A stretch of 64,000 bases of DNA from NCBI GenBank assembly GCA_964409365.1, contig CAYPCX010000001.1:128684-192683 (forward strand), given 5' to 3'. The stretch comes from an uncultured Planctomycetia bacterium (GTDB taxonomy: Bacteria; Omnitrophota; Gorgyraeia; Tantalellales; Tantalellaceae). A model generated the notes under the pieces. It saw only the letters and a program-made list of their open reading frames with translations, did no database searches and was not told the DNA's origin. Positions 15,972-33,222 of the stretch are shown piece by piece. Each line of letters starts with the position of its first letter. Positions within the stretch are counted from its first letter, which is position 1. A program made the translations under genes and the position numbers.

Positions 15972-16588
15972 TGAGTAATATAGACAGTATCATCAACAGT
16001 TCCCCGGATGTGTCACAGTTCGCGAAAGGTTATTTCGAGTACATATCGAAACTGACCGCACAGCTTGATACGGAGGCCATATCCGCTTTTGTAAAAGAGC
16101 TGGAATCCGCGCGAAAAGACCATAACACGGTCTTTTTCGTGGGTAACGGCGGCTCTGCCGCCACCGCTTCGCACATGGCGAACGACCTCGCTTTCGGTTC
16201 ACGTGTCCATCAGGACCCTCCGTTCCGCGTCCTTTCGCTCACGGACAACGTCGCCGCCATGACGGCCGTAGCTAACGATAACGGCTATGAAAGTCTTTTC
16301 ATACGCCAGCTCAAGGTCCATTACAGGCCCGGCGACAAGCTCGTGGCGATATCGGCCAGCGGCAATTCCCCGAACGTGGTGACAGCGGCCGAATGGGTGA
16401 AAGAGCAGGGCGGGAAGGTCATAGGACTTGTGGGTTTCGACGGAGGGAAGCTCAGGGACATCTGCGACATAACGATATGCATAGAGACCCCCAAAGGGGA
16501 ATACGGCCCGGTGGAGGACGTGCACATGATGCTTGATCACCTCATATATACCTGGATATGGTACAGGAAACGCAAGGGAGATATCTGA
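15971..16588 (+). CDS. SIS-domain sugar-phosphate isomerase (GmhA-like / single-domain arabinose-5-P isomerase-like)
   Basis: VFFVGNGGSAATASHMANDL and VAISASGNSPNVV are SIS-domain motifs. 205 aa with no CBS domains. Confidence 0.75.
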   Translation: MSNIDSIINSSPDVSQFAKGYFEYISKLTAQLDTEAISAFVKELESARKDHNTVFFVGNGGSAATASHMANDLAFGSRVHQDPPFRVLSLTDNVAAMTAVANDNGYESLFIRQLKVHYRPGDKLVAISASGNSPNVVTAAEWVKEQGGKVIGLVGFDGGKLRDICDITICIETPKGEYGPVEDVHMMLDHLIYTWIWYRKRKGDI

Positions 16589-17526: not shown

Positions 17527-18263
17527 ACATTGACTTCAAAGGCAAGAGGGTGCTCGTGACCGGCGCCACGCGCGGTATAGGCAGGAAAATAGCCGAAGAC
17601 CTGGCCGAAGCCGGTGCGGAGCTCATACTGACCGGCACGAATGAGGACGAGATAAAAAAGCTGAACTTATCCGGCGGGCCCAACATGAAATATTACCGCG
17701 TGGATTTCACCGACACGGGCAGCGTGGAGGGTTTCCTGAAGGAGCTCGGGAAGTTCGACAGGATCGATGTGTGCATCAACAATGCCGGTATCAACAAGAT
17801 CGATCTTATAGACGAAGTGGAAGACAAGGACTGGGACGATATCATAGCCGTTAACCTTAAGGGCCCGTTCCTTCTCACCAGGGCGGTCAGCGGCATCATG
17901 AAGAAGAACGGTTACGGCCGGATAGTGAATATCGCCTCCATATTCGGCGTCGTTAGCAAGGAAAAGAGGTCCACGTATTCGACGACGAAGTTCGGGCTTA
18001 GAGGCATGACGAAAGCCGCTTCGAATGAGCTTGCCGGATACGGGGTCCTGGTGAATGCCGTATCGCCCGGGTTCGTGCTTACGGACCTTACCAGGAGCAT
18101 ATTAAGCGAGAAAGAGATGAAAGAGATCGCGCAGCGGGTGCCGGCCAAACGGCTGGCCCAGCCGGAGGATATATCAAAGGTGGTACTGTTCCTGGCCAGC
18201 GACCTCAATACGTACCTGACCGGAAAGAACATAGTAGTGGACGGAGGGTTCATAGATGTCTGA
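17523..18263 (+). CDS. Short-chain dehydrogenase/reductase (FabG-like)
   Basis: VLVTGATRGIGRKIAEDL (TGxxxGIG) and NNAG motif. 246 aa. Confidence 0.85.
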   Translation: MNIDFKGKRVLVTGATRGIGRKIAEDLAEAGAELILTGTNEDEIKKLNLSGGPNMKYYRVDFTDTGSVEGFLKELGKFDRIDVCINNAGINKIDLIDEVEDKDWDDIIAVNLKGPFLLTRAVSGIMKKNGYGRIVNIASIFGVVSKEKRSTYSTTKFGLRGMTKAASNELAGYGVLVNAVSPGFVLTDLTRSILSEKEMKEIAQRVPAKRLAQPEDISKVVLFLASDLNTYLTGKNIVVDGGFIDV

Positions 18264-19329
18264 TAAATTCACCGTAAGGTCGAGGATAAGGGAGTATACC
18301 GTTGAGTTCACGGACCACCTGAAGGCCCTGGAGAAATGCGCCGGGGAAGGGGCTTTCCTGGTCCTGGATGAAAAGGTGGGCGAGTTGTACGGCGGTAAGA
18401 TGAAGGAGTTTTTCGCGCCGGAGAAGATCCTGATGGTCCATGCCGACGAGGAAAGCAAGACGCTCCGCGGATGCCAGGGTCTCATAAAGGAGCTTATCGA
18501 GAGGGGCATACGCAGGAACAATAAGCTCGTCGCCGTGGGCGGCGGCGTGATAGAAGATATCGCCGGGTTCATGAGCACCGTGATATTCAGGGGCATAGAA
18601 TGGGTATTTATCCCGACCACGCTCCTGGCGCAGGCCGATAGCTGTATAGGCAGCAAGAGTTCGATAAACCTGGGGCGGTACAAGAACATGCTGGGGTCTT
18701 TCTATCCCCCGTCGAACGTTTACATCGATGTGGAGTTCCTCAAGACGCTGCCGGAGAGCGAGATAAAGTCAGGCATAGGCGAGGTGCTGCACTTTTACCT
18801 CATTGCCGGGGAAGAGGAGCTGGCGGGCAGGATGATGTCGGAATATGACGCGATTTTGGCCGACCCCGGGAAGATGAAGGATTATATATTGCCGAGCCTC
18901 CTGATAAAAAAGAGCGTTATCGAGGTGGACGAACTTGATAAGAATGAGAGGAACATATTCAATTACGGGCACACATTCGGCCATGCGATCGAGACAGTCA
19001 CCTCGTACGGCATAAACCACGGCCAGGCGGTCACGATGGGCATGGATATGGCCAATTACATCTCCATGAAGAAGGGATATATAAAGGAAGAGGTATTTGA
19101 CCGCCTGCACGGCATACTGGCTAGAAATATGCCCGATTTCGCGCTCTCGGAGGAGTCCTCCGACGGTTATTTCAAGGCGCTATCGAAGGATAAGAAGAAC
19201 GTAGGTGCTGACCTGGGCTGCATATTGACAAAGGGACCGGGTAAGATGTTCAAGGAACTGGTTCCGATGAACAGGGTTTTCAAGGACGATATATTTGAGT
19301 ATTTCGGGAGGAGAACACCGGACAGATGA
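18256..19329 (+). CDS. 3-dehydroquinate-synthase-like sugar-phosphate cyclase superfamily enzyme
   Basis: GGGVIEDIAGFMSTVIFRGIEWVFIPTTLLAQADSCIGSKSSINLGRYKNMLGSFYPPSNVYIDVEFLKTLPESE and NYGHTFGHAIE match AroB/EEVS/DOIS-family motifs. Confidence 0.75.
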   Translation: MSDKFTVRSRIREYTVEFTDHLKALEKCAGEGAFLVLDEKVGELYGGKMKEFFAPEKILMVHADEESKTLRGCQGLIKELIERGIRRNNKLVAVGGGVIEDIAGFMSTVIFRGIEWVFIPTTLLAQADSCIGSKSSINLGRYKNMLGSFYPPSNVYIDVEFLKTLPESEIKSGIGEVLHFYLIAGEEELAGRMMSEYDAILADPGKMKDYILPSLLIKKSVIEVDELDKNERNIFNYGHTFGHAIETVTSYGINHGQAVTMGMDMANYISMKKGYIKEEVFDRLHGILARNMPDFALSEESSDGYFKALSKDKKNVGADLGCILTKGPGKMFKELVPMNRVFKDDIFEYFGRRTPDR

Positions 19330-20078: not shown

Positions 20079-21263
20079 ATGGTAAAGAAACTATTCACGG
20101 GATTAAGGGGATTCTGGCTCGCGCTGGGCGTGGTGCTTATGGTCCTTTTGTGCATGGAGGGCGCTTCGGGGCTTTTCCTGTACGTCAAGGAGGGGGTCTT
20201 GAGGTCCGTAGATCCCAGGGCGGAGGCGGACGTTTATGCCGGGGCCCAATGGACGGAGGATTTCTACAGGACGGCTCTTAAAATGGGCGGGGTAAGATGG
20301 CACCCTTATGTCTACTGGCGAAGGAAGGCATTCGAGAGCGAGTACATAAATGTGGATAAATACGGCGTACGAAAGACGTGGAACAGGGAAGCGTCCGCCG
20401 GAGAGAAGGGAGAGCCCTTCAAGATCTTCATGTTCGGGGGGTCAGCCATGTGGGGAACGGGCGCCAGGGACGACCATACGATACCCTCTTATCTATCTAA
20501 AATGCTGAGCGAAACGATTGAGCGCAGGGTGGAGGTAGTGAATTACGGTGAGATGGGATACGTCAACACTCAGGAGGTCGCCATGCTGCTTTACCAGCTG
20601 AGGAGAGGCAACGTGCCGGATATGGTGATCTTCTACGACAATATAAACGACATAGGGGCGGCCGCGCAGAACAGGGAGGCCGGCCTCACCAACAGCGAAT
20701 TTAACAGGGCCAGGGAATTCAACCTGCTGAACGAAGTGAGGCAGCAGGATCTTTACCTTGAGGCCGTAAGGAGCGCGGCGAAGAATTCTCCTACCATGCG
20801 CCTGATGAAAAAGGTATTGAGGAAGATAGGGCTGCTGAAAAAAGAGCCCCCCCAGGCGGGCTCGGACGGGAAGATCTCCGACAAGCTTGCCGACGATATA
20901 ATAAAGGTATATGAATCGAACATAAAGATGGTAGAGGCGCTGGGAAAAGAATATGGGTTCGAGTCTCTCTTTTACTGGCAGCCGATAGTTCTGGACAAAC
21001 CCCACCTTACGCCTTTCGAGAAGAAGCAGGCCAGGGAATGGATGTATTTCAAGGACTTTTATTTCCAGATGCACGGGAGAGTGGACGGATCGGGGTTCCT
21101 TTCTTCGGATCCCCGGTTCCGGGACTTGAGCGGGATCTTCGCAAATGCGAAAAAACCGTATTTTATAGATTTTTGCCACCTGGGAGAAGCGGGTAATGAG
21201 ATAGTGGCGGAAAACATGTACGAAGATGTGCTTCCGATCATCAAAAAAAGGGGAGAACAATGA
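20079..21263 (+). CDS. Membrane-anchored SGNH/GDSL-like hydrolase or acyl(acetyl)transferase accessory protein
   Basis: N-terminal TM helix (FWLALGVVLMVLLCM). FMFGGSAMWGTG block is a GDSL-block-I-like motif with G replacing D. The 255-aa antisense ORF 20493..21260 is taken as a shadow. Confidence 0.5.
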   Translation: MVKKLFTGLRGFWLALGVVLMVLLCMEGASGLFLYVKEGVLRSVDPRAEADVYAGAQWTEDFYRTALKMGGVRWHPYVYWRRKAFESEYINVDKYGVRKTWNREASAGEKGEPFKIFMFGGSAMWGTGARDDHTIPSYLSKMLSETIERRVEVVNYGEMGYVNTQEVAMLLYQLRRGNVPDMVIFYDNINDIGAAAQNREAGLTNSEFNRAREFNLLNEVRQQDLYLEAVRSAAKNSPTMRLMKKVLRKIGLLKKEPPQAGSDGKISDKLADDIIKVYESNIKMVEALGKEYGFESLFYWQPIVLDKPHLTPFEKKQAREWMYFKDFYFQMHGRVDGSGFLSSDPRFRDLSGIFANAKKPYFIDFCHLGEAGNEIVAENMYEDVLPIIKKRGEQ

Positions 21264-22222
21264 AGCTGGTGATACAGATACCGTGTCATAACGAAGAAGA
21301 GACCCTTCCGGTCACGTTGAAAGACCTGCCGTCGTCCATAGACGGGGTGGGTACCATCGAGAAGGTGGTCATCAACGACGGCTCAACGGATAATACGGTT
21401 GCCGCAGCGTGCGGGAACGGGGTGGACCACATCGTGAACCTGCCGTACAGGCGAGGCCTGGCCGAGGCTTTCAGGCAGGGCATAGAAAAGTCCCTGGAGC
21501 TTGGCGCCGATATTATCGTGAACACGGACGGGGATAACCAGTATAAAGGAGAGGATATCAAGAAGCTCATAAAGCCGATACTGGATAAAAAGGCGGATAT
21601 AGTGGTGGGCTGCCGCGATATCTCGACGATAGAGCATTTCTCGCCGCTGAAGAAACTTCTGCAGAAAGTGGGCAGCCACGTCGTGAGGAGGTTCTCCAGG
21701 ACGGATATCCCCGACACGACAAGCGGTTTCAGGGCGTATTCGAGGGACGCGGCGCTCAGGCTCAATGTCTTTTCCAATTACACGTACACCCTCGAGACGA
21801 TAATCCAGGCGGGCCGCAAAGAGATACCGATAACCCATGTCGAGATAGGCACGAACGAAAAATTAAGGGAATCCCGGCTCATCAAGAGCCTGCCGTCGTA
21901 CGTAGCCAGGTCCTGCGCCACCATGCTGCGCATATACCTTATGTACGAGCCGATGAAGTTCTTCACGAAGGTAGGGACGGTGATATTGTCGCTGGGCGCT
22001 CTGCTCGGCGTGAGGTACCTGTATTTTTTCTTTTTCACGGCCAGGCGCGGCGGACACATGCAGTCGTTGCTTCTCGGGGCGATATTGTTCCTTTCGGGGT
22101 TCATACTGGTCGTCATAGGGCTTCTGGCGGACGTGATAGCCGCGAACAGGAAGCTGAACGAGGAGATACTTTTCCGCCTGAAGAAGAGCGGGTTTTCGGA
22201 CAAGGTCAGGAACAAGGTTTAG
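21260..22222 (+). CDS. Polyprenyl-phosphate glycosyltransferase (GT2, GtrB/ArnC/DPM1-like) with C-terminal TM helices
   Basis: KLVIQIPCHNEEETLPVTLKDL..VVINDGSTDNT..VNTDGDNQY..DTTSGFRAY are GtrB/ArnC motifs. The hydrophobic C-terminus is typical of Und-P sugar synthases. Confidence 0.8.
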   Translation: MKLVIQIPCHNEEETLPVTLKDLPSSIDGVGTIEKVVINDGSTDNTVAAACGNGVDHIVNLPYRRGLAEAFRQGIEKSLELGADIIVNTDGDNQYKGEDIKKLIKPILDKKADIVVGCRDISTIEHFSPLKKLLQKVGSHVVRRFSRTDIPDTTSGFRAYSRDAALRLNVFSNYTYTLETIIQAGRKEIPITHVEIGTNEKLRESRLIKSLPSYVARSCATMLRIYLMYEPMKFFTKVGTVILSLGALLGVRYLYFFFFTARRGGHMQSLLLGAILFLSGFILVVIGLLADVIAANRKLNEEILFRLKKSGFSDKVRNKV

Positions 22223-22264: not shown

Positions 22265-23335
22265 ATGAACGCAAAGAACGCTAAAAAAATACTGATGTTG
22301 TCGAGGAAGTATCCTCCTTCCGTCGGGGGCATGCAGGTGTACGCGCGGGACTTCATAGAACACATGGGTGGGATCTACGACGTTGATAAAGTAGTCCTCG
22401 GAAAAGGGCAGGGCCACCTGGTGTGGTTCCTCCCGTACCTTTTCATGAGCTCTTTCGCGCTCAACATGACGCGGGATTATGACCTCGTGTGGTTGTGTGA
22501 CGCGCTTCTCGCGCCGCTGGGAGTCGCGCTTAAAAAAGCGTTCAACGTCAAGGTCGGGGTTACGGTCCACGGGCTGGACATGACCTATGACAGATTTTTA
22601 TACCAGAGCGTGGTTCCCGGGGCCGTTTCACGGCTTGACAGGGTAGTGTGCGTGAGCGGGAACACCAGGGAAGAATGTCTCAAGAGGGGTGTGGACGGCG
22701 ACAGACTATCCGTTATACCCAACGGCATAAGACCGGAAGGGTTCAAATGGGAGTTTTCCGAAACAGAGGGGAAAGAACTGCTCAGAGAGGCCGCCGGCGG
22801 GGATCTGGGGGAAAAGAAAGTATTATTGACGGTCGGAAGGCTTATCAAACGCAAAGGGGTGGACTGGTTCATAGAGAACGTCATGCCGCGCCTTGAAGAT
22901 GATTTTGTCTACCTTATAGCGGGCGCGGGCCCGGAATACGACAATATCGCCGGGACGATAAAAAGATGCGGCCTGTCCGGCCGGGTCAAATTGCTCGGCA
23001 GGGTCAGTGACGATCTCTTAAAGGCCCTGTACAGATTCTCATATGCGATGGTACTGCCGAACCAGAGGATCGAACGGGATCCCGAAGGGTTCGGGATAGT
23101 CGCCATAGAAGCGGCGAGTTGCGGGCTTCCCGTTATAGCCAACCTGGTGGACGGTATAGGCGAGGCCGTGCTGGACGGGAGGACGGGGTGGCTCGTGGAT
23201 TACAATGACGCCGATCTTTTTATCGAAAAGATAAAAAGATCGGTCCTCGAAAGAAGCATAGTGGAAAAAGGCAGCGAGGCCTTCTACTGGCCGAATATAG
23301 CCGGAAGGTATCAAAAGGAGATCGATGCGATATAA
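22265..23335 (+). CDS. Glycosyltransferase family 4
   Basis: LSRKYPPSVGGMQVYARDF N-terminus. C-terminal GT4 block FGIVAIEAASCGLPVIANLVDGIGEAVLDGRTGWLV. An ATG at 22295 is an alternative start. Confidence 0.8.
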   Translation: MNAKNAKKILMLSRKYPPSVGGMQVYARDFIEHMGGIYDVDKVVLGKGQGHLVWFLPYLFMSSFALNMTRDYDLVWLCDALLAPLGVALKKAFNVKVGVTVHGLDMTYDRFLYQSVVPGAVSRLDRVVCVSGNTREECLKRGVDGDRLSVIPNGIRPEGFKWEFSETEGKELLREAAGGDLGEKKVLLTVGRLIKRKGVDWFIENVMPRLEDDFVYLIAGAGPEYDNIAGTIKRCGLSGRVKLLGRVSDDLLKALYRFSYAMVLPNQRIERDPEGFGIVAIEAASCGLPVIANLVDGIGEAVLDGRTGWLVDYNDADLFIEKIKRSVLERSIVEKGSEAFYWPNIAGRYQKEIDAI

Positions 23336-24797
23336 GAGGCTCTTATTCCTGATACCCGGATACAAGGGGTCCCATTATGAGTACGCGGGGCTCCCGACCG
23401 GGGTGGGATATGTTTCCGAGGCTTTGGGCTCTGCCGGCATAGAACAGAGCATCGTGGACATGCGCCTGGGATACGGGTATAAGGACCTCAAAAAACGCAT
23501 CAACTTGTTCAAACCGGATCTTGTGGGTGTTTCCATGATGAGTTTCAGGTACAAGGACCATTATGCGCTCCTGGACAGGATAAAGAAGGACTTCGGTAAT
23601 ATCGATATCGCCGTGGGTGGTCCGCACCTTTCGACTTTCAGGGAGAAAGCGCTTGAGGAATGCAGGTCCATCGATTACGGCGTGACCCTGGAAGGCGAAG
23701 ATACCATTATCGAGCTCTGCAAGGGCGAGAAAGACCCGGACCGGATAAAGGGCCTCATGTTCAGACGCGGCGACGGGATAGCCTATTCAGGTGACAGGGA
23801 ATTCATAACGGACCTGGACGGCAAGGATTTCCCGAGATATGAGCATTTTGAGACGGACAAATACCCGCATTACAGGTCGCTGGTGACGAGCAGAGGGTGC
23901 CCCCATAACTGCATCTTCTGCCCGGTGCAGCTTACGATAGGCAAAAGGCTGCGCATGAGGTCGCCCGAATCGATACTGGAAGAGATAGATCACTGGTACG
24001 GGAAAGGTATTCGCGTTTTCAACGTCGTGGATGACAACTTCACGTTCTATAAGAAGAGGATAATGGATATATGCGAGGGCGTAAGGAAAAGAGGGTACAA
24101 AGATCTCACGTTCAGCTGCAGGAACGGTGTCAGGGCGGACACCGTCGACAGGGAGATGCTGGAAGCGATGAAGGAGATAGGGTTCAATTATCTCGCTTTC
24201 GGAGTGGAATCAGGAAGTGACAAGATGCTGAAGATCATCAAAAAAGGCGAGGGCCTGGCCGCGATCGAGCGTGCCGTCCGGGAGGCGTGCGATCTCGGAT
24301 ACATGGTGACGCTGTTCTTTATCATGGGCCTCCCTTACGAGACCGAGGAAGACGTCGAAAAGTCCCTTGCGCTGGCCATGAAATATCCGGTCTTCGACGT
24401 GAGGTTCTACAACCCGATACCTTTTCCCGGGACCGAGCTCCATGACTGGGTGGAAGAGAACGGTTATTTCAACGACAAGAGCAGGGACTTCCTGAATTCT
24501 TTCTCCCACTGGATAAGCGACCCCGTGTTCGAGACGCCGGAACTGCCCATGGAGAAACGCAAGGCTCTGTACAAGGATATCAATAAAAAGATAAAAAAGC
24601 ATACGTTCAAGACAAAACTTTCTTTCGCGAAAAATATGGAGAAGATGTTCAACGACCTGGGCCTGCCGGGACACCTTAGTAAGGTGCTCGCCAGGCTGTA
24701 TTACACCTCCTTCTTTCAAAGGTTTGTCATCGATTCGGGCCTGGCGTCCAGGCTCAGGAAGTTCCTGAAACTGAAAAGGAGGTCGCGAGCGGCATGA
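23325..24797 (+). CDS. Cobalamin-binding (class B) radical SAM enzyme
   Basis: B12-binding-like N-domain (LVGVSMMSFRYKD..IAVGGPHLS) followed by TSRGCPHNCIFCPV (CxxxCxxC) and a radical SAM core. Second such enzyme in the locus. Confidence 0.8.
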   Translation: MRYKRLLFLIPGYKGSHYEYAGLPTGVGYVSEALGSAGIEQSIVDMRLGYGYKDLKKRINLFKPDLVGVSMMSFRYKDHYALLDRIKKDFGNIDIAVGGPHLSTFREKALEECRSIDYGVTLEGEDTIIELCKGEKDPDRIKGLMFRRGDGIAYSGDREFITDLDGKDFPRYEHFETDKYPHYRSLVTSRGCPHNCIFCPVQLTIGKRLRMRSPESILEEIDHWYGKGIRVFNVVDDNFTFYKKRIMDICEGVRKRGYKDLTFSCRNGVRADTVDREMLEAMKEIGFNYLAFGVESGSDKMLKIIKKGEGLAAIERAVREACDLGYMVTLFFIMGLPYETEEDVEKSLALAMKYPVFDVRFYNPIPFPGTELHDWVEENGYFNDKSRDFLNSFSHWISDPVFETPELPMEKRKALYKDINKKIKKHTFKTKLSFAKNMEKMFNDLGLPGHLSKVLARLYYTSFFQRFVIDSGLASRLRKFLKLKRRSRAA

Positions 24798-25930
24798 AGA
24801 TATTCACCGTTACCATGGTGCCCGTGAACCCGCCGTATGACGATGCGGTGAAGAACATGGTGATAAACATCGCCAGACGCATAAGGAGGCATTCGTTCCT
24901 TCTCGTATCCTCTTTTTTCGGTAAGGCGTTCAGGCGGGAGGCGAACGTCACTTTTCTGCGGTCGGTCTTCCAGAAACAGGGCCGGCACAGTATGTCCTTT
25001 ATGCAGAAATTATACGTGTTCATTATGGTGCTCCTGAACATGGGAAAGGTGGACCTCTTTCAGTTCTTTGTCACCCCGCAGCCGTATTTCTCGCGTGTGT
25101 TCAAGAGACTATTGCAAGACAAGGGCAAAAAGTCCCTCCAGGTAGTGTCTTCCATACACACTCTTTACGGGAAGAACGACGATAAGGTGATAGCGGATCT
25201 CTTTTTCGCGGACCGCGTGGTGGTGTATTCGGATTTCACCAAGAAATCTCTTGAGGAAAAAGGCGTTAAAAACGTGGTGCGCGTTTATCCGGGTATCGAT
25301 TGCGAAAGGTTCGCTCCAAAACCCGGGACGGATAGTTCTTTCAATATCGTGTACGCGGGGTCTTACGGGGTATTGGCCGGGGCTTTCCCTTTCGAGGATC
25401 TCTCCGCTGTCGCGGAAAAGGTGACCGGACGTTTCAAGAAGGCTAATTTTATCATGGCGTGCAGGATAAGAACGGCGAAGGATATACTCCTTCGCAGGGC
25501 CTTTGAAAAAATGGTCGAACGGAAAGGGATGAAAGATAATTTCACGTTCCTGGATACGGTGGAGGACATGCCGGCGCTTTTCAGAAAGAGCGATATCGGG
25601 ATAATGCCGGCAAAGGACGCGATGTCCGGCGTGCTGGAGATACCCATGGTGCTCTTGGAGATGGCCTGCGCGGGTAAACCGGTCATATACGGGGACGTAC
25701 CTCCCCTGGGAGAGCTTGCCGACAAGGGTATCGGGATCATGCTCGCGGACCGGTGTGCCGGGGCCTACGCGGAGAAGATACTCGCGCTTCTGGAGGACAG
25801 GGATTCGGCCGCAAGTATCGGAAAAAGATCAAAGAATGCCGTGGAAAAGTATTTTAACATAGATGTCATGGCCCGGGAGTATGAGAGGATATACGAGGAT
25901 CTGGAGACAGGTCGCAGGAGGAGCGGGTAG
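24794..25930 (+). CDS. Glycosyltransferase family 4
   Basis: C-terminal GT4 motif PAKDAMSGVLEIPMVLLEMACAGKPVIYGDVPPLGEL. Confidence 0.7.
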   Translation: MKIFTVTMVPVNPPYDDAVKNMVINIARRIRRHSFLLVSSFFGKAFRREANVTFLRSVFQKQGRHSMSFMQKLYVFIMVLLNMGKVDLFQFFVTPQPYFSRVFKRLLQDKGKKSLQVVSSIHTLYGKNDDKVIADLFFADRVVVYSDFTKKSLEEKGVKNVVRVYPGIDCERFAPKPGTDSSFNIVYAGSYGVLAGAFPFEDLSAVAEKVTGRFKKANFIMACRIRTAKDILLRRAFEKMVERKGMKDNFTFLDTVEDMPALFRKSDIGIMPAKDAMSGVLEIPMVLLEMACAGKPVIYGDVPPLGELADKGIGIMLADRCAGAYAEKILALLEDRDSAASIGKRSKNAVEKYFNIDVMAREYERIYEDLETGRRRSG

Positions 25931-27456
25931 TGGACGCTAACAGGGGTATAGTCGAGACGCAGTTGGAGAATGTGCGGTATTTCACGCACAGGGATTATCC
26001 GCCGGACGGGAACACCAGGACGATACTGGAGAAGATGGCCCGTGTAGAGGGGGTCGTGAAGCCGGTAGTGGCCCTGCCGGACCTGCATTACAAGTATTCG
26101 TATCACACCCCGACCGGTGTCGTAGTCCTTACCAGGGACAGGATAATACCGAAGTTCGTGAACGCGAACTGCGGCATGAGTTTCGTGAAAACGCCTTTTT
26201 TCGCCGATGAGGTCGATGATAAGAAACTGGACACCCTGTTCGATCACCTGAGGAAAAATATCACCATTTCCACCAGGATGGAACCCGTGATCTCGAGGGA
26301 CGATCTGGAGGAAATAGTGATGAAAGGGGCGGAATGGACCTTTGAGAAGTTCGGCCTGGACGGGCGGGACCTTGCCAATTTTGAGAACGAGGGTTCGCTC
26401 TTTAAATACGACACCAGGTCCGCGGAGAAGATAATGTCTTACGTACCGCGGGCATGCCGTGATGTGGGTCTCTTAAGTCTCGGTGTTCTCGGATACGGCA
26501 ATCATTTCATAGAGCTCCAAGCGGTGGATTCGGTGCTTAACGGCGAGATCGCCGAAAAATTCGGCATATCAGAAAACCAGCTGTGCTTCATGATACACAG
26601 CGATTCCAGGGCGTTCGGTCAGTCCCTGATAGACCATTATTCTAAAAAGACGAAGAGACTTCTGGGGCTGCAGCAGGCCTATAAGAAGATCCATTACATG
26701 GCTCTTGCTTCGCAAAGGGTGCCGCGCCCGGTAAAAAGGGCTTTCGACAGGCTGAACTTTTACCTGAACAGGTTCAAATCTACCGCTTACTGGAAGATGG
26801 ACGCGTTGAACAGAAAGGCGGATATCGATTTCAAGACGATGGGCGCCGGAACGGAAGAGGCCGAGGGCTACCTGGCGAGCACATACGCGGCCATCAATTT
26901 CGGTTATGCCAACAGGGCGTATATGGCTTCCGTGATACGCGACGCGTTCAATAGGGCGTTCGGCAGGGAGGATACACAGGTCAATATACTGCATGACGGC
27001 AATCATGACGCCCTTCAGCAGGAAAGGATAGGCGGCGAGATATACTATGTGCACAGGAACGGGGCTAACAGGGCGCTTCCTCCCGAATGCTTCCCGGACC
27101 ATCCGGTATTTTCCCGGACCGGGCAGCCCGTGCTCCTTCCCAGTTCGCTGGGCAGGCCTTCTTTCCTCTGCGCGGCCGCGAAAGGATGTCCGGCTTCGTA
27201 TTTTTCCACGTGCCACGGGGTGGGCAGGGTGATAGACAGGGGAGAAGCCAGGGAAAAGTTCAGCGCGGACGAAGTCTTTGACGAGGCAAGGTCCGCCAGT
27301 ATGAAGATATACGATTACGGGAAAGGTAAGGCCCAGGAAGAGGCGCCGCGCGCGTTCAAGGACGTGAATAAGGTGCTGGAGACGCTGGCCGAGAATGAGA
27401 TCGCGGAACCCGTGGCCAGGCTCAGACCGTTGGCGGTCCTTAAAGGATGGAGATAA
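25930..27456 (+). CDS. RtcB-family (3'-phosphate/5'-hydroxyl nucleic-acid ligase) homologue, divergent
   Basis: Blocks matching RtcB signatures: ALPDLHYKYSYHTPTGVVV (cf. PDxHxGxGxxIG), LGYGNHFIELQ (cf. GSGNHFxExQ), ILHDGNHDAL, STCHGVGRV (cf. HGAGR), and the C-terminal RLRPLAVLKGW (cf. LxPxxVxKG). 508 aa. Confidence 0.6.
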   Translation: MDANRGIVETQLENVRYFTHRDYPPDGNTRTILEKMARVEGVVKPVVALPDLHYKYSYHTPTGVVVLTRDRIIPKFVNANCGMSFVKTPFFADEVDDKKLDTLFDHLRKNITISTRMEPVISRDDLEEIVMKGAEWTFEKFGLDGRDLANFENEGSLFKYDTRSAEKIMSYVPRACRDVGLLSLGVLGYGNHFIELQAVDSVLNGEIAEKFGISENQLCFMIHSDSRAFGQSLIDHYSKKTKRLLGLQQAYKKIHYMALASQRVPRPVKRAFDRLNFYLNRFKSTAYWKMDALNRKADIDFKTMGAGTEEAEGYLASTYAAINFGYANRAYMASVIRDAFNRAFGREDTQVNILHDGNHDALQQERIGGEIYYVHRNGANRALPPECFPDHPVFSRTGQPVLLPSSLGRPSFLCAAAKGCPASYFSTCHGVGRVIDRGEAREKFSADEVFDEARSASMKIYDYGKGKAQEEAPRAFKDVNKVLETLAENEIAEPVARLRPLAVLKGWR

Positions 27457-27457
27457 G

Positions 27458-28090
27458 ATGATAATAGCTTTTTCGGGTCTGGACGGGAGCGGAAAAACGA
27501 CACAGTCCAGGTTCGCTGAGCAGTACCTCAGGGACAGGGGCTACAGATGTGCCTACAGGCATGCTATAAGGGGCTCGCTGCATTATTTTATACTGCATAA
27601 CCTGGTAGGCAGGGTCTCCGGCCGGGCGAAGGATTCTATGGAGAAGGGTTTAAGGGAAACGGGCGGGGCGAAAGCGTTCTTCGTATCCCTGGTGAAAAAG
27701 ATCTTTCTTTTCCTGGACCTTGTATATTTCAACCTGCGGTACGGGCGTTATAAAGGGCAGACAAAAAGGAATATAATATGCGACCGGTATTTTTACGACG
27801 AGATCGTGCAGGCGGATTATCTAAAAATAGCCGGGAACGCTTTCAACGGCATGTACCGGAAGCTTATACTGGAGCCGGACATTTCTTTTTTCCTGAAAGT
27901 GCGTCCCGAGTCGGCTTTTGAGCGCAAAAAAGAATATAACAGGTCTTATTTTACGCAGAAAGGGAAAGTATACGAGACCTTCGCGCAGCGGATAAAAATG
28001 AACGAAGTTGACGAACAAGACCCGGAGGCGGCAAAGAAGGCCGTACTTTCGGACCTGGAACGGCTATATACGGCACGAGGGACGGTATGA
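27458..28090 (+). CDS. Thymidylate-kinase-like P-loop (d)NMP kinase family protein
   Basis: MIIAFSGLDGSGKTTQ matches the dTMP-kinase Walker A block IxxEGxDGxGKTTQ. Start ATG 27458 is 2 nt after the upstream stop; the track ORF from 27395 is extended. Confidence 0.55.
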   Translation: MIIAFSGLDGSGKTTQSRFAEQYLRDRGYRCAYRHAIRGSLHYFILHNLVGRVSGRAKDSMEKGLRETGGAKAFFVSLVKKIFLFLDLVYFNLRYGRYKGQTKRNIICDRYFYDEIVQADYLKIAGNAFNGMYRKLILEPDISFFLKVRPESAFERKKEYNRSYFTQKGKVYETFAQRIKMNEVDEQDPEAAKKAVLSDLERLYTARGTV

Positions 28091-28091
28091 T

Positions 28092-29099
28092 ATGGAACTG
28101 AAGAACGGTTACTTGAAAAGATGGATACAGACCTTTCTGATCGCGGCGATCACGGCAGGCCTCGTCTGGTTCATAAGGGATAACTGGCCGCTGATAAAGA
28201 AAATATTGATCATAAGGCCTTCATATGTAGCCCTTATAATGTCACTGCTCCTGATAGGAAGGGTCATGGCGGGTTTGAGGATAAAGCTTATCGTGGGGCT
28301 CTCGGGAGTGAAGCTCCGTTTCATGGAGTGGTTCGGCACCGCGGTCATCACCAATTTTTACAATTCGTTCTTTTTTAAAGGCGGGGTAGCCCTGACCGCC
28401 ATATACCTCAAGAACAACCATCGTCTGAATTATTCCAAGTATGTCAGCCTGACGATCGGTTCAATGAGCATGGTGGGCCTCTCGGCCGCTATTATAGGAA
28501 TAGCATGCAGTTTGTACGGGTACTTCAAGGGGGCTTTCGACCTTGCGCTCGCGGTGATCTTCGCCGTGATGCTTATCGGGGTGGTGATCGTGCTCCTTTT
28601 ACCGGGTATACGTTTTCCCCGGAAAAAGATCTTCAAGCTGCCGAATACGCTGTTCGAGTGCTGGGATGTGCTGCGCGGCGACAAAATAACGGTATTGAAA
28701 TTATTCATCCTTGAGACCACCGTGCTTTGCCTTTTCGCTTTAAGATATTATCTGACCTTCAAGATGTTCGAGATACCGGTGCCTTTTTATGTGTGCCTCA
28801 TCCTTTGCCCTTTTAACATAGTTACGAACGTCGTCAGCATAATACCCAACGCGTACGGGGTAAGGGAAGCGGTGGTAGGGTTCGCGTCCAAGCTGGCGGG
28901 GATAGGCTTCACCGGAGGCGTGATGGCCACGCTGGTGAACAGGGTGCTCATGATGATCGTGTCTTTTACGCTGACGCCGGTTTTCAGTTATTACCTGATG
29001 GGGAATTTCAAGGTGGGACCCGCCGCCGTGGACGCTGCCGGGAAAGCGGGCATATCGGAAGAAGAACCAGAAAAGGAATTTTGTTATGATGAACAGTAA
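28092..29099 (+). CDS. Polytopic membrane protein, MprF/lysylphosphatidylglycerol-synthase TM-region-like (flippase-like, UPF0104)
   Basis: At least 7 predicted TM segments. The N-terminal pattern (WIQTFLIAAITAGLVWFIRDNWPLIKKIL, positive-inside loops) resembles LPG_synthase_TM-family proteins. Start ATG 28092, 2 nt after the upstream stop. Confidence 0.45.
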   Translation: MELKNGYLKRWIQTFLIAAITAGLVWFIRDNWPLIKKILIIRPSYVALIMSLLLIGRVMAGLRIKLIVGLSGVKLRFMEWFGTAVITNFYNSFFFKGGVALTAIYLKNNHRLNYSKYVSLTIGSMSMVGLSAAIIGIACSLYGYFKGAFDLALAVIFAVMLIGVVIVLLLPGIRFPRKKIFKLPNTLFECWDVLRGDKITVLKLFILETTVLCLFALRYYLTFKMFEIPVPFYVCLILCPFNIVTNVVSIIPNAYGVREAVVGFASKLAGIGFTGGVMATLVNRVLMMIVSFTLTPVFSYYLMGNFKVGPAAVDAAGKAGISEEEPEKEFCYDEQ

Positions 29100-30621
29100 A
29101 GCGGTCTTTGTTTTTCTCTTTTTCGCGGCCCTGTACGCGGTTTTTTCGATAGGGCACTTCGGGGGCGACGGGTACCAGGACTACCTGATCGCGGAAAGCA
29201 TTGTCCTGGACGGGAACCTTTCGCTTTTTGACAGGCCGCAGGATAAGGATGACCTGGCATATGAGGCGGGATCCATCGGCAAGCGGGGCACGGACGGTAA
29301 GATCTATTCGTCGCGCAAGGGGTTCGGCGTGGCTTTTATACTCGTTCCTTTTTACCTGGCCGGCCACGTGGTGTCTTTCTTTTTCAAGGGAGTACCGCAT
29401 GATTACATTACGATGCTTTTTGTATCGTTCGCTAATCCGCTCATAACGGCGCTGAGCTGCATGATGGTGTTTTTCATAGCGGGCAGGCTGGGGTTCGGAT
29501 CGAGGCTTTCCGCATTATTGAGTTTAATCTACGGGCTTTCCACTATGGCGCCCGTGTACGCCAGGACGGGGTTCGGTGAACCTGTGATGGTCCTTTTCAT
29601 GCTGCTGGCGGTGCGCACCGCTCTTTGGTACGGCAAAGGCCCCGGCGTATACCGGATAGCTTTGACCGCGTTGTTGCTTTCGTGCATGTTCGTGTGCAAA
29701 ATATCGTCCCTTATATTCGTTCCGTGTTTTCTCGTATACGTGATATGGGTGATGAAAGGGGCGAAACTGTCCGTTTCCGCCCGGACGGGGCATTTTGTAT
29801 TGTTCTCGGGAGTGGTCCTTCTGGTGTTCTCCGCCATATTGGCGGCGAACTTTCTGCTGTTCGGCGACCCGTTCTCGTTCGGGGAGACAAAAGCTCTTTA
29901 TATCACGAAGAAAATAACCATGGCCCCGCACGTTATAAAGGGGTTTTATTATTACCTGGTAAGCACGGGCAAGGGGATGTTCCTCTATAACATACCTGTG
30001 ATACTGGCGTTATTAGCCGCGGGAAGGGCCTTCAAGGAAGATAAAAAAGCGGCGGTGCTTTTCCTTCTGATCTTCGCGGTGAACCTCCTGTTCTTCGCGA
30101 AGTCCTTCAGGCGGGGATCGCTTTTCAGCTGGGGCCCCAGGTATCTTTTACCGTCGGTTCCGCTTTTAGTGCTTCTTTCGGGGTATTTTCTGAGGGATAT
30201 CAGGGCAATGGCCCTGAAGGTCGCGGTCTTCCTGTCGGCGGCGGCGGGATTTCTTATAATGATACCCTGTATGCTGGTCAACCAGTCGAAATTCTATTTT
30301 TTCGTCGTCGAGAAACTGAAGCTTGAGGAATACATGATAAATTTCATGCCGGATCTTTGCCCTATAGGGGGTTCCTGGTGGATGCTTGTGAGCGGTATTG
30401 TTGAAAAGAGAGGGGGGGCGCCCCCGCTCTTTACGTACATGCCGGATTACCGGCTGGTCGAGCCGGTCAGTTCCGCCATGACAGGATACAACAACATGGA
30501 CCTGTGGTCCATCAAGGTGGCGAACCTGGCTCCTCAGTTCATGCCGTGCGTATACATATGCCTCGGCATACTGGGGGTCGTCGCGGCCTTTTCGTTCTAT
30601 AAAATAGTGTCCGAGAAATGA
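29086..30621 (+). CDS. Large polytopic membrane protein, putative GT-C-fold glycosyltransferase or polymerase
   Basis: 511 aa with more than 10 predicted TM helices and an N-terminal periplasmic-loop-like acidic segment (GHFGGDGYQDYLIAESIVLDGNLS). No precise family assignable by eye. Confidence 0.35.
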   Translation: MMNSKAVFVFLFFAALYAVFSIGHFGGDGYQDYLIAESIVLDGNLSLFDRPQDKDDLAYEAGSIGKRGTDGKIYSSRKGFGVAFILVPFYLAGHVVSFFFKGVPHDYITMLFVSFANPLITALSCMMVFFIAGRLGFGSRLSALLSLIYGLSTMAPVYARTGFGEPVMVLFMLLAVRTALWYGKGPGVYRIALTALLLSCMFVCKISSLIFVPCFLVYVIWVMKGAKLSVSARTGHFVLFSGVVLLVFSAILAANFLLFGDPFSFGETKALYITKKITMAPHVIKGFYYYLVSTGKGMFLYNIPVILALLAAGRAFKEDKKAAVLFLLIFAVNLLFFAKSFRRGSLFSWGPRYLLPSVPLLVLLSGYFLRDIRAMALKVAVFLSAAAGFLIMIPCMLVNQSKFYFFVVEKLKLEEYMINFMPDLCPIGGSWWMLVSGIVEKRGGAPPLFTYMPDYRLVEPVSSAMTGYNNMDLWSIKVANLAPQFMPCVYICLGILGVVAAFSFYKIVSEK

Positions 30622-31523
30622 AGATAGATATACTGGTGCTCAATTACAACGGTAAAGACCTCATGGAAGCTTATCTGCCCTCGGTATGCGAGGCCGCGGA
30701 GCGCTCCGCGCATGAGTGCGAGGTGCATGTAGTGGACAACCTGAGTTCCGACGGGAGCGCGAGGGTAGTGCGCGAGGGTTTTCCCGCGGTCCGGCTGCAC
30801 ATAGCCCGGGAGAACAGGGTATTGTGCTCGTACAACGAGGTGGTAAGGGACCTTTCGAGCGACGTGGTCATATTCCTGAACAACGATATCAAGGTAGAGC
30901 CGGATTTTGTGGACATACTCGTGGGGCATTTCGAGAAAGAGGACGTCATGTTCGCGGCGCCGCGCCTCATGAACTTCGACGGCACGTATAACGGGGGAAG
31001 GTCCTTCCTCAAGTTCGACAAGGGGGCCGTGAAGGTGATGGTCGACGAGGATAATTTCAAAAGGCCGGGCGGAACATGCGCCATATCGACAGGGGCGTTC
31101 AGACGAAGCGCGTTTCTGGATCTCGGAGGGTTTGATGACTTGTACCTCCCGGGCATATGGGAGGACGTGGATATATGTTTCAGGGGCCAGATCCTCGGAT
31201 GGAAAGGCGTGTATGAACCGGACAGCGTCATCTGGCATGACGAGTCTACCACTTTCCACAGGGAATACGGCAAGAAGGGCAAGATGAGGATAGCGCACAG
31301 GAATATGTTCCTTTTCTTCTGGAAGAACATAACCGACCCGGGTATGTTCGCGGGGCACCTGGTCTGGACGGTCCCGCGGGCCGCGGTGTTGGCGCTGAAA
31401 GGAAAAACAGAGATCATGGAAGGGCTTTTGATGGCCATAAGGCGCATGCCGCTTGTCATCGGGAAAAGGAAGCATCTAAAAAAGGAAAGCAGGATCAAAA
31501 GGGACAGGGACCTTATAGGATAA
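30618..31523 (+). CDS. Glycosyltransferase family 2
   Basis: IDILVLNYNGKDLMEAYLPS..VHVVDNLSSDGS..FLNNDIKVEPDF is a GT2 DxD domain. The 504-aa antisense ORF 30671..32185 is a shadow. Confidence 0.8.
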   Translation: MKIDILVLNYNGKDLMEAYLPSVCEAAERSAHECEVHVVDNLSSDGSARVVREGFPAVRLHIARENRVLCSYNEVVRDLSSDVVIFLNNDIKVEPDFVDILVGHFEKEDVMFAAPRLMNFDGTYNGGRSFLKFDKGAVKVMVDEDNFKRPGGTCAISTGAFRRSAFLDLGGFDDLYLPGIWEDVDICFRGQILGWKGVYEPDSVIWHDESTTFHREYGKKGKMRIAHRNMFLFFWKNITDPGMFAGHLVWTVPRAAVLALKGKTEIMEGLLMAIRRMPLVIGKRKHLKKESRIKRDRDLIG

Positions 31524-32227
31524 TGAAGATAACGATCCTTACAAGTGACATACTTGACGGTCTGGTGATATCCCAGCGCATCATTGACGCGGGGAAGGAT
31601 GTGAAGGCCATACTGTATGAGACTAAAAAAAAGACCTGGAAGGCGCTTCTCAAGCGCTTTCTGTATCTTTTGAAGGGCGAGATAAGGCATCTGGGCTACA
31701 GGGGCATGGCAAAGGCCAGGCCCGGGCTCAGGGTAGAAGAGGTAAGTGACATGAACTCCGGAAGGGCTAAAAAAGTCCTGGAGGAAGTAAAGCCGGACCT
31801 TATTGTCGTCGCCGGGACCGGGAAGCTGAAAAAAGAGATATACAGTTCGGCGGCGAAAGGCGCTATAAACATGCACTCGGGGATCCTTCCGTATTACAGA
31901 GGAGCCGATTCGGAGTTCTGGGCGCTTTACAACGGCGAGGCCGACAGGATAGGCGTCACGATACATTTCATAGACGAACGCCTCGACGCGGGGGACATGA
32001 TACTGCAGGAGAGGTTGAGGGTGGGGTCCCGCGATGATTTCAAGAAGCTGAGGATGAAGAACATATCCCTGGGAAGCCGTAAGATGGTGGAAGCTATCGA
32101 ACTTATCGAGAAGGAAGGGCACAAAAGGATGCCGCAGGACGAGAGCGTCGCGAGGACTTACAGGACGCATACAGCGAGAGACCAAGCCGTTTACCTGGAA
32201 AGGACGAGAACATGCGCAAAAAAGTAA
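31523..32227 (+). CDS. Formyltransferase-domain protein (sugar N-formyltransferase / Fmt-N-domain-like)
   Basis: AINMHSGILPYYRGADSEFWALYNGE..GVTIHFIDERLDAGDMI is the formyl_trans_N catalytic motif (HxSLLPxxRG, D). Only 234 aa, so no Fmt C-domain. Confidence 0.75.
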   Translation: MKITILTSDILDGLVISQRIIDAGKDVKAILYETKKKTWKALLKRFLYLLKGEIRHLGYRGMAKARPGLRVEEVSDMNSGRAKKVLEEVKPDLIVVAGTGKLKKEIYSSAAKGAINMHSGILPYYRGADSEFWALYNGEADRIGVTIHFIDERLDAGDMILQERLRVGSRDDFKKLRMKNISLGSRKMVEAIELIEKEGHKRMPQDESVARTYRTHTARDQAVYLERTRTCAKK

Positions 32228-33222
32228 GCGTGTTAAAGGAATTCGGTTTCGAAGGGCTGAAGGTCAGGGAGACCGTGGCGCAGGAGCCGACGATACTCAA
32301 AGGGGGCAGGCGCACCGGTTTTCCGAGCGACCTTTTCTGCCTGAGGATCGACGCGGACGAGTACAATAAAGAGGCATTCGAGGCTTACTATCCGGTTTTC
32401 GAGAGATACGCCGGCTGCATAACCATATTTTTTAACGGCAACTCTTTCAGGACGGCGACGGACCAGATATTAAGATGCAAGGCAACGGGGCTGGACGTCC
32501 AATCCCATTCTTTTTATCACTATATTTACAGCGATTATGAAAGCAACAGGCGTAATGTAGCCAAGGCCAGGGATTTTTTCAGCAGGCTGGGCATTGACAC
32601 GGTGGGTTTTGCCGCTCCGATGGGTTGGTGGAATCATGGCCTGATGAAGGCCCTGGAAGACGAGGGTTACGCGTATTCGTCGGATTTTTCCTACGACTAC
32701 ATGTCGCTGCCGAGTTACCCGAGGCTGGGAGAGGTGACTTCCAGGGTCCTGGAAATACCGGTGTTCCCGGTAGCCCCGGAGCTTTTCTGGGAGGGAAACG
32801 AGCCGGATGTGGGAGCTGTGTTCGAATATTACAAACAGGCTATAGATGAGATGGTCCGCTGCGGGGTGCCCGTGATAATCTATGCGCATACCAGTACCGG
32901 ACTTTCGGCCATACCGGGTCTTCTGGGAGCGATCTGCCGTTACGCGCTCGAGAGAAAACAACTGAGGCCTGCCACGATGACCGGTATCTACGAGGAATGG
33001 ACAAAGAAGGGCATGCAATGGTTCGCCGCCATCTCGGGAGAGAGAGAAGTGCCCGCCGTCCCGGAAGAGTTCATAGGCCGGGAGGTGAAGGTGCCTTTCT
33101 TTAAGTCGCTGAAAGAAAGTATCAAAAAAAGAATAGATTTCGAAAAGATAACGCCCTATGAAGAATTGGAGTGCGCCCTGCCGAAGAAGGTGATAAAATT
33201 ACTTGCCAGGAAGCTCACTTAA
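32212..33222 (+). CDS. Polysaccharide deacetylase (NodB / CE4 family)
   Basis: LRIDADEY (motif 1 DxD region) and DVQSHSFYHY (motif 2 H-S-x-x-H) are typical of NodB-homology deacetylases. Confidence 0.65.
   Translation: MRKKVSVLKEFGFEGLKVRETVAQEPTILKGGRRTGFPSDLFCLRIDADEYNKEAFEAYYPVFERYAGCITIFFNGNSFRTATDQILRCKATGLDVQSHSFYHYIYSDYESNRRNVAKARDFFSRLGIDTVGFAAPMGWWNHGLMKALEDEGYAYSSDFSYDYMSLPSYPRLGEVTSRVLEIPVFPVAPELFWEGNEPDVGAVFEYYKQAIDEMVRCGVPVIIYAHTSTGLSAIPGLLGAICRYALERKQLRPATMTGIYEEWTKKGMQWFAAISGEREVPAVPEEFIGREVKVPFFKSLKESIKKRIDFEKITPYEELECALPKKVIKLLARKLT

Follow-up and report, generated by a model that had tools for sequence, protein, structure and literature searches.

What is a member of the RtcB family doing in the middle of a bacterial glycan gene array? 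All characterised RtcB enzymes, to our knowledge, act on RNA or DNA ends. The question is raised by a 64,000-nucleotide stretch of contig CAYPCX010000001.1 (positions 128,684 to 192,683 of the forward strand; assembly GCA_964409365.1, deposited as an uncultured Planctomycetia bacterium and placed in the Omnitrophota by GTDB), the whole of which is called the window here. In it an RtcB-like gene (25930-27456, + strand; 508 residues, GTG start) is followed immediately by a gene for a Tmk-fold P-loop kinase (27458-28090, + strand; 210 residues), and the pair is embedded in a single same-strand array of glycan/lipopolysaccharide-type genes that occupies the window from about 20 to 57600 (to 57607). 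An initial annotation of the locus offered two readings: nucleotide-activating chemistry co-opted for a glycan or lipid intermediate, or the unexpected insertion of an RNA-repair cassette. The comparisons described below argue against the second and fit the first. With a probability near one half, the RtcB-like protein and the kinase would form a two-enzyme, non-RNA phosphate-activating module for the biosynthesis of envelope glycan or glycolipid, the chemical steps all being read from genomic context and sequence.

The RtcB-like product belongs to its family by profile and by fold. Against Pfam RtcB (PF01139) it scores 294.9 bits (cut-off 27), with residues 33-506 spanning profile positions 2-426 of 426, and its AlphaFold2 (AF2) model (predicted local distance difference test, pLDDT, 90.6; predicted template modelling score, pTM, 0.92) is matched by Foldseek to structures 4DWQ, 1UC2 and 8ODP with template modelling (TM) scores of 0.73-0.77 at 25-27% identity. 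The RtcB blocks listed in the initial annotation are all found in the translation (PDLHYKYSYHTP, GYGNHFIELQ, LHDGNHD, CHGVGR and RLRPLAVLKG). The protein lies under all NCBIfam RtcB equivalog cut-offs, with 154.9 bits vs 407 for NF007153 and 124.3 vs 271.8 for TIGR03073. It had also been described as about 100 residues longer than bacterial RtcB, which is correct for the E. coli type (408 residues) but not for the archaeal and human type (481-505 residues), over which the excess is about 27 residues and is accounted for by a clade-specific insert of about 44 residues, forming two helices at approximately 246-293. This insert is basic, with a net charge of +4 to +14 in 26 of 26 aligned members.

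The active site is where the protein is most informative. In P. horikoshii RtcB, metal M1 is bound by Cys98, His234 and His329 and metal M2 by Cys98, Asp95 and His203; Lys480 and Glu206 read the guanine, and Asn330 contacts the gamma-phosphate (PMC9745838). The 5'-OH polynucleotide strand is held by Asn202, Arg238, Arg190, Gln194 and His242 (PMC8051266). With this enzyme as reference, 50 members of the clade to which the window protein belongs were compared with 43 canonical RtcBs. The GMP acceptor His404 is kept as H429 within CHGVGR (the HGxGR motif), and H429, G430, G432 and R433 are invariant in 50/50 members. Also retained in every member are C81 (for Cys98, the ligand of both metals) and the M1 histidines H223 (His234) and H359 (His329), as are the two guanine readers E195 (Glu206) and K505 (Lys480). 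N191 and H192 (Asn202 and His203) are kept, N191 in 50/50 and H192 with a Tyr in one member; so are R433 and R437 (Arg408 and Arg412), and R227 (Arg238) is kept in 47/50.

The departures are equally consistent. The most important atypical feature, which the initial annotation had not mentioned, is the replacement of the M2 ligand Asp95, an Asp in all 43 canonical sequences, by Asn at residue 78 (NANCG vs DINCG); Asn is found in 48/50 clade members, and the two most divergent (P0052, P0053) have Leu or Phe. Three strand-holding positions are replaced as well: Arg190 (43/43 R in canonical RtcBs) is V, M or I at residue 179, Gln194 (43/43 Q) is Ser in 49/50 at residue 183, and His242 (39/43 H) is Gln or Arg at residue 231. 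New polar residues stand beside the metal histidines, namely Asp225, Asn358 and Asp360, the last in place of Asn330. The first block, already noted as atypical, reads PDxH[FY]KxSYHTPTG across the clade instead of PDxHxGxG. We read this pattern as GTP binding and self-guanylylation under selection, with a remodelled second metal site and a replaced polynucleotide-backbone surface. The alignment suggested in the initial annotation therefore gives a divided answer, in that the M1 ligands and the GMP-accepting His are retained and the M2 Asp is lost; a wholesale loss of catalytic metal and His ligands is not what is observed. As judged from its sequence, the protein is an RtcB by profile, fold and nucleophile, and departs from the family in its M2 Asp, its strand contacts and its equivalog scores.

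These features define a group of their own. Some 54 homologues, most of them carrying the label Candidatus Omnitrophota, score at least 362 bits at 38-100% identity; after P0054 scores fall steeply, to about 33% identity and ordinary RtcBs. A neighbour-joining (NJ) tree of 116 sequences, including the 50 full-length clade members, recovers the clade as monophyletic in 99/100 bootstraps; median identity is 55% within it and 30% to other RtcBs. Among 1.84 billion cluster representatives (50% identity) only about 9 reach the scores of clade members (489 bits or more), and beyond these the other non-canonical RtcB-like groups form a long gradient. An ordinary RtcB with the GYDINCG motif is also present in Omnitrophica (P0070). 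By sequence, then, the product of 25930-27456 is a member of a distinct clade, not an ordinary RtcB, and the phylogeny proposed in the initial annotation bears out its suspicion of a separate paralogue group.

The genomic context of the clade was examined at 11 distinct loci (the window, also L007, and L001, L002, L003, L004, L005, L010, L011, L094, L095 and L096). In each of them the RtcB-like gene is immediately followed by a Tmk-like gene, and all 11, two of them archaeal-looking, are in glycan clusters. The control was a set of 82 ordinary-RtcB loci, 67 of which have at least 700 nucleotides of downstream sequence; 80 of them are the matches listed from a metagenome scan with the clade alignment, in which the generic pattern LGxGNHF[ILV]E drew ordinary RtcBs. 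A Tmk-like gene occurs in 0/82. An ordinary RtcB orthologue in surroundings unrelated to glycans is thus not what the locus contains, and chance insertion is rejected on the same comparison; the habitual association with glycan clusters, for which a neighbourhood survey had been proposed, is present throughout. Searching genome contigs with the single RtcB-like protein returned four clade loci and one ordinary RtcB among the matches listed.

Other genes travel with the pair. The glycosyltransferase family 4 (GT4) gene directly upstream in the window, called GT4b (24794-25930, + strand; Pfam Glyco_trans_1_4, Glycos_transf_1 and Glyco_transf_4), has its counterpart in the same position in 8/11 distinct loci and appears to be a dedicated partner. 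Most loci also have a flippase-like transmembrane protein, a glycosyltransferase family 2 (GT2) of the polyprenyl-phosphate-sugar-synthase type, a GT-C/PMT_2 protein and a B12-radical S-adenosylmethionine (SAM) enzyme. Orthologues of the flippase-like gene adjoin the pair in L001, L002, L003, L010, L011, L094 and L095; those of the B12-radical-SAM gene occur in L001, L010, L011 and L004, with further B12-radical-SAM genes in L094, L095 and L096; and those of the window's GT2 (21260-22222) and second GT4 (GT4a) occur in L001-L004, L010 and L011. The partner families are small: the Tmk-like protein has 27 close relatives, and GT4b comprises 35 proteins, after which the score drops from 268 to 135 bits. 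Contigs of the same size as those carrying the RtcB-like gene hold 14 of the Tmk-like and at least 17 of the GT4b relatives.

Two of the loci appear to extend the distribution beyond bacteria. The L004 contig carries Ribosomal_L37e and LSM genes, and L005 a 325-residue uL3 and an eEF1A-type gene, and both look archaeal; the pair is kept there beside GT4s or a UDP-glucose dehydrogenase and a Polysacc_synt flippase. Their clade members show 39-48% identity, and their proteins are very rich in lysine and arginine, with net charges of +23 to +49. These observations suggest that the module has been transferred between Omnitrophota and small-genome archaea. L009 and L010, although taken from metagenome-assembled genomes (MAGs) labelled "uncultured Planctomycetia" and "Patescibacteria group", share synteny with the Omnitrophota loci at about 60% identity; either the module extends beyond Omnitrophota or those MAG labels cannot be trusted.

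In the window, the gene junctions tie the pair to its neighbours. The stop codon of GT4b (TAG, 25928-25930) overlaps the GTG start of the RtcB-like gene by 1 nucleotide (TAGTG). The first 11 residues read from this GTG (25930-25962) are missing from homologues and form a disordered stretch in the AF2 model; the annotated start is probably real nonetheless, because a strong AGGAGG Shine-Dalgarno sequence lies 8 nucleotides upstream and the start overlaps the GT4 stop. The TAA stop of the RtcB-like gene has its last base at 27456, and the kinase gene begins with an ATG at 27458; the kinase gene closes with a TGA whose last base is 28090, ahead of the ATG of the flippase-like gene (28092-29099, + strand) at 28092. 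The 2-nucleotide distances of the initial annotation hold, each start lying 2 nucleotides beyond the last base of the preceding stop, and correspond to 1-nucleotide spacers. The flippase-like gene in turn overlaps the gene at 29086-30621 by 14 nucleotides, and the trio does lie, as described, between a GT4 gene (24794-25930) and a GT-C-like gene (29086-30621, so classed by orthology). From this arrangement, the RtcB-like, kinase and neighbouring glycan genes are translationally coupled. In a scan of the cassette region, promoter and terminator sites were no commoner than in shuffled sequence. A mobile or foreign insertion is rejected, given uniform G+C across the window and the cassette junctions, GC skew that is positive throughout, and conserved synteny. 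A defence-system search of the window (PADLOC) gave matches at the level of the P-loop only, and that interpretation is likewise rejected.

The kinase resembles thymidylate kinase without being the housekeeping enzyme. It carries IIAFSGLDGSGKTTQ and scores 45.9 bits against Pfam Thymidylate_kin (PF02223), the match being confined to residues 101-175 (profile 78-155) and the P-loop. Its AF2 model (pLDDT 90.9) finds Tmk structures as all of its best PDB matches (TM 0.6-0.73, 15-23% identity), and in 28 family members the DGSGKT P-loop, DRYFxD and the lid residues R156-K157-x-E159 are invariant. The Tmk likeness claimed in the initial annotation is therefore sound, since the fold, the GxDGxGKT P-loop and the DR[YFH] motif are all there. 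Alignments to Tmk structures in the PDB are limited to the P-loop and the C-terminal half, the segment that binds deoxythymidine monophosphate (dTMP) or other nucleoside monophosphates (NMPs) being unaligned, and the score against TIGR00041 is 42.9 bits vs a cut-off of 83.25. On these sequence grounds it is a Tmk-fold enzyme and not the housekeeping dTMP kinase. Residues 70-98 were considered as a membrane- or lipid-binding insert, a candidate rejected when the model showed them to be the core helix (71-98) that precedes DRY in every Tmk. More distant Tmk-like kinases (30-34% identity) are encoded in polysaccharide clusters that have no RtcB (L097, 8001-8588; L098, 8001-8618), which argues that the kinase family belongs to glycan pathways; it looks like part of a wider, undescribed family of glycan-cluster P-loop kinases. 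The L097 relative adjoins a Polysacc_synt flippase, GT2s and a LytR_cpsA_psr gene, and that of L098 is in a cluster with Wzy, GT2, DegT, a split transketolase and Bac_transf.

A scheme for the module can be drawn from these parts. The P-loop kinase would phosphorylate an intermediate (a sugar, a polyol or a lipid-linked compound) with ATP. The RtcB-like enzyme would then react with GTP at His429 to give a covalent enzyme-GMP, a step for which the machinery is fully conserved, and would pass the GMP to the substrate phosphomonoester, yielding X-O-P-P-G by chemistry like that which forms RNA-3'pp5'G. In the ligation variant of the scheme, a second glycan or lipid hydroxyl would attack the activated phosphate to leave a phosphodiester bridge and GMP. 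This variant is mildly favoured because Asn191 (50/50) and Arg227 (47/50), counterparts of residues that position the 5'-OH, are kept; the E. coli counterpart of Arg227 contributes approximately 200-fold to sealing and only 3-fold to RNAppG formation (PMC8051266). The GT2, flippase-like and GT-C proteins may move a polyprenyl-phosphate-linked sugar across the membrane and attach it outside, as in Gtr/Arn-type systems. The broad suggestion of co-opted nucleotide-activating chemistry in the initial annotation is compatible with a monophyletic, glycan-associated clade that has kept its GTP/His machinery and lost an M2 ligand and three RNA-strand contacts, and like the scheme itself it is drawn from context and sequence.

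In the alternative variant, the GDP-activated product would be released and used by the dedicated neighbouring GT4. The two most divergent RtcB-like proteins, those of L094 and L095, have Glu for Arg227 and Leu or Phe at residue 78, and at these loci a neighbouring CDP-alcohol phosphotransferase would consume the product. Its genes (L094, 1559-2260, - strand; L095, 899-1612, - strand) lie divergently upstream of the RtcB-like gene, in the place of GT4b, and best match archaetidylinositol-phosphate and DIPP synthases (inositol-phosphate type), below cut-off. They give a hint, from two loci only, that the last step can be outsourced.

Several points weigh against a glycan-directed, non-RNA module. 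The conserved set for GTP-dependent self-guanylylation fits an RNA ligase equally well, and the strongly basic clade insert (+4 to +14) could bind RNA and not a membrane or anionic glycan. Enzymes of the Tmk family normally phosphorylate a nucleotide phosphate, not a sugar hydroxyl, and this kinase has kept both the DRY motif and the Gln of its base-binding helix, so that its substrate could be a nucleotide. A weakened metal M2, and with it a lower activity, could follow from the change of Asp95 to Asn. The context survey comprises 11 distinct loci plus contigs matched by size, the matches listed from the metagenome scan being ordinary RtcBs, and the identity of the substrate is not readable from neighbouring genes.

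One rival view takes the protein to be still an RNA or DNA end-joining or end-capping enzyme whose place in a glycan operon reflects co-regulation, for example in envelope stress, and not shared chemistry. His429, the M1 ligands, the GTP-reading Glu and Lys, Arg227, Arg433 and Arg437 are all conserved, the insert is highly basic, and context-specialised RtcB paralogues are known, such as that of RtcB2-PrfH (PMC9223846). Against this stand the loss of Asp95, R190, Q194 and H242, (near-)invariant in the 43 canonical RtcBs, and the pairing in 11/11 distinct loci with a non-RNA kinase, together with a dedicated GT4, on bacterial and archaea-like contigs alike. Archease, RtcA, RtcR and PrfH are absent among the called genes of L001-L005, L007 and L094-L096, and tRNA and Rfam RNA searches gave zero matches anywhere in the window. 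End-joining or capping of nucleic acid thus appears improbable, and the insertion of an RNA-repair cassette, as raised in the initial annotation, is contradicted by the same glycan-cluster place in 11 loci, by uniform G+C and translational coupling, and by the lack of such repair genes nearby.

Of about the same low likelihood is a nucleotide module, in which the Tmk-like protein would be an NMP or nucleotide 3'-OH kinase and the RtcB-like protein would guanylylate or join a nucleotide phosphate, the product being a G(5')pp-nucleotide, an unusual precursor of nucleotide-sugar type, or a glycan decorated with nucleotide. The Tmk fold with its P-loop Asp, DRY and lid Arg is in keeping with such a role, as is the capping of polynucleotide phosphate ends by RtcB with GMP to give DNAppG (PMC8051266). 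Sulfation genes (the sulfotransferase at 20-811 in the window; a 3'-phosphoadenosine-5'-phosphosulfate (PAPS) reductase and a CysN-like GTPase in L005) further imply 3'-phosphate nucleotides nearby, but conservation of these genes does not extend over the clade loci. The dTMP-binding segment of the Tmk profile is unaligned and the score falls under the dTMP-kinase cut-off, and the distant relatives of the kinase are in polysaccharide clusters that lack RtcB, all of which speaks against a nucleotide substrate. Less probable still is a catalytically dead RtcB fold that would act as a scaffold within a glycan assembly complex or bind its substrate, in spite of the clade-wide loss of Asp95 and the Tyr for His192 in one member, since (near-)invariance of His429, C81, H223, H359, N191, E195, R433 and K505 across 50 sequences only about 55% identical bespeaks selection on catalysis.

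The phosphate-activating module is therefore the reading carried forward. It suggests a new role for 3'-phosphate-activation chemistry and perhaps a new route to envelope phosphodiester links or GDP-activated donors. A bolder and distinctly tentative form of it would make the protein the first RtcB-family enzyme on a non-nucleic-acid substrate, a GTP-dependent "glycan ligase" joining the phosphate that the kinase had put on a sugar or polyol to a hydroxyl of another glycan or lipid unit via X-pp-G. A literature search found no paper linking RtcB to glycans; Burroughs and Aravind (2016), on RNA repair systems, lies outside that search and may mention the clade. If the ligase proposal were true, phosphodiester-linked surface polymers could be made without a CDP-alcohol or nucleoside diphosphate (NDP)-sugar-phosphate donor, by a means common to Omnitrophota and small-genome archaea. 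The three-gene unit of GT4b, RtcB-like gene and kinase gene offers a concrete entry to the surface chemistry of Omnitrophota and DPANN-like archaea.

Metagenomes contain many other non-canonical RtcB-like subfamilies without the GYDINCG aspartate (P0055-P0074 and P0173-P0214, none of them in the window). One such group, with the motif SSPSxNCGM, has in addition lost the Arg that follows the catalytic His and the aromatic residue that stacks on guanine; another has VDxGINCGM, and the variants P0188, P0191, P0196 and P0203 have Ser or Asp for the bridging Cys. Annotations that read "RtcB family protein" conceal functionally distinct subfamilies.

The genes that surround the cassette look like a Gtr/Arn-type extracytoplasmic glycosylation set, each assignment being made from matches below equivalog cut-offs. 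The flippase-like protein at 28092-29099 (335 residues) has as its only Pfam match LPG_synthase_TM (PF03706; 71.7 bits, cut-off 33.4; residues 18-292), and scores 28.4 bits, below cut-off, against the TIGR00374 flippase-like domain. Its description as an MprF-like putative flippase holds for the transmembrane domain alone: Pfam finds no C-terminal aminoacyl-phosphatidylglycerol synthase domain in it. An MprF-like, tRNA-dependent aminoacylation of lipid was considered and rejected, given the lack of a synthase domain and of any tRNA gene in the window. The next gene (29086-30621, + strand) encodes a polytopic membrane protein of 511 residues with no Pfam match at E<=0.01. It scores 464-621 bits against proteins of L001, L002, L003, L010 and L011, and its counterparts in L001, L002 and L095 match PMT_2/PMT, which are GT-C families; its assignment as GT-C-like (ArnT/PMT_2 type) is by this orthology only.

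Upstream of GT4b, all on the + strand, are the conserved polyprenyl-phosphate-sugar-synthase-like GT2 (21260-22222; Pfam), whose best NCBIfam matches are AglJ, PpgS, ArnC-type and dolichyl-phosphate hexose transferase, all below cut-off; the conserved GT4a (22265-23335; Pfam); and the recurrent B12-binding radical SAM enzyme (23325-24797; Pfam B12-binding and Radical_SAM), with HpnJ (hopanoid ring-contraction) as best NCBIfam match at 168.7 bits vs a cut-off of 577.6. The last match, beside the cassette, hints at unusual sugar or cyclitol chemistry. Downstream, also on the + strand, lies an Arn-like trio of a GT2 (30618-31523; Pfam Glycos_transf_2), a formyltransferase (31523-32227; Pfam Formyl_trans_N), best matched in NCBIfam by an ArnA-type family at 75.7 bits, below cut-off, and a polysaccharide deacetylase (32212-33222; Pfam Polysacc_deac_1). 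The GT2-formyltransferase-deacetylase arrangement is repeated in L001 and L003.

Farther from the cassette, the array includes the sulfotransferase gene at 20-811, NDP-sugar genes with a C-methyltransferase, a carbamoyltransferase, an HpcH aldolase with a CMP-sugar-type cytidylyltransferase, and three GT9 heptosyltransferases. A Wzy_C ligase (46260-47465) and a Bac_transf initiating transferase (44852-46246) are also encoded, as are three GT-C/PMT_2-like proteins (29086-30621, 38743-40089 and 54432-55817) and three radical SAM enzymes (7531-9057, 23325-24797 and 49818-50804), two B12-binding and one SPASM. A dehydroquinate (DHQ)-synthase-like gene of the sugar-phosphate-cyclase superfamily (18256-19329) adjoins SIS_2, 2-hydroxyacid dehydrogenase, SDR and GFO_IDH genes (15971-18263); L001 repeats the SIS_2, 2-hydroxyacid dehydrogenase, SDR and DHQ-synthase-like set, which could be a branch for a cyclitol or a rare ulosonic sugar. 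Weak threads lead toward inositol or cyclitols, namely MshA/BshA-like matches of GT4s, the CDP-alcohol transferases of L094 and L095, an Inositol_P gene in L002, and the DHQ-synthase-like gene in the window. An inositol- or cyclitol-phosphate substrate was set aside as a lead only, each match being below cut-off and no such gene conserved across loci.

How, then, does the module compare with known systems? Its nearest structural relatives are the archaeal and eukaryal RtcBs (P. horikoshii PH1602 and human RTCB), with which the clade shares the fold, the HG[AV]GR His, the M1 ligands, the Glu and Lys that read guanine, and the two Arg residues that follow the His. It differs from them in the Asn for Asp95, the replaced R190, Q194 and H242, the changed first block, the new Asp225, Asn358 and Asp360, and the basic insert. 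In the loci examined, moreover, the partner of the clade gene is in every case a Tmk-like kinase within a glycan cluster and never archease or RtcA. The kinase in its turn shares with Tmk the fold (TM 0.6-0.73), the GxDGxGKT P-loop and the DRY motif, but at 15-23% identity it falls below the TIGR00041 cut-off, its NMP-binding segment is unalignable, and its gene is a glycan-cluster gene.

In logic, the proposed pathway resembles the Kennedy pathway, the LicA/LicC/LicD phosphocholine route, and teichoic acid synthesis from CDP-glycerol or CDP-ribitol, in all of which an alcohol is phosphorylated, converted to an NDP-ester and transferred to a hydroxyl to form a phosphodiester. The sequence of kinase, activation and transfer is common to both, and the CDP-alcohol phosphotransferase of L094 and L095 belongs to that scheme. 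The protein families are unrelated, however: activation in the clade would use the RtcB fold and its His-GMP, not a cytidylyltransferase, the kinase has the Tmk fold, and activation and transfer could share one active site. The GDP-cyclitol route to validamycin and acarbose, made up of a cyclitol kinase, a guanylyltransferase and a pseudo-glycosyltransferase, is similar in that a kinase and a GMP-transferring enzyme feed a transferase of GT-B type, and the window has its DHQ-synthase-like gene at 18256-19329. Here too the families are unrelated, and the cyclase-like gene is not clade-conserved (there is none near L002-L005).

Within the RtcB family itself there are precedents for parts of the scheme. 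M. xanthus RtcB3 carries out 5'-phosphate capping. E. coli RtcB forms a stable DNA3'ppG (PMC8051266), which shows that the transfer of GMP to a phosphomonoester can be the end point of RtcB chemistry. A halt at this stage is what the GDP-activated donor variant needs; the substrates of end-capping are polynucleotide ends, whereas the clade context points to a glycan or lipid intermediate. The RtcB2-PrfH ribosome repair module (PMC9223846 and PMC13166195) provides the example of an RtcB paralogue whose substrate is set by the partner gene to which it is tied. Its partner is a release-factor homologue and its substrate 16S rRNA, whereas the partners of the present clade are a kinase and glycosyltransferases.

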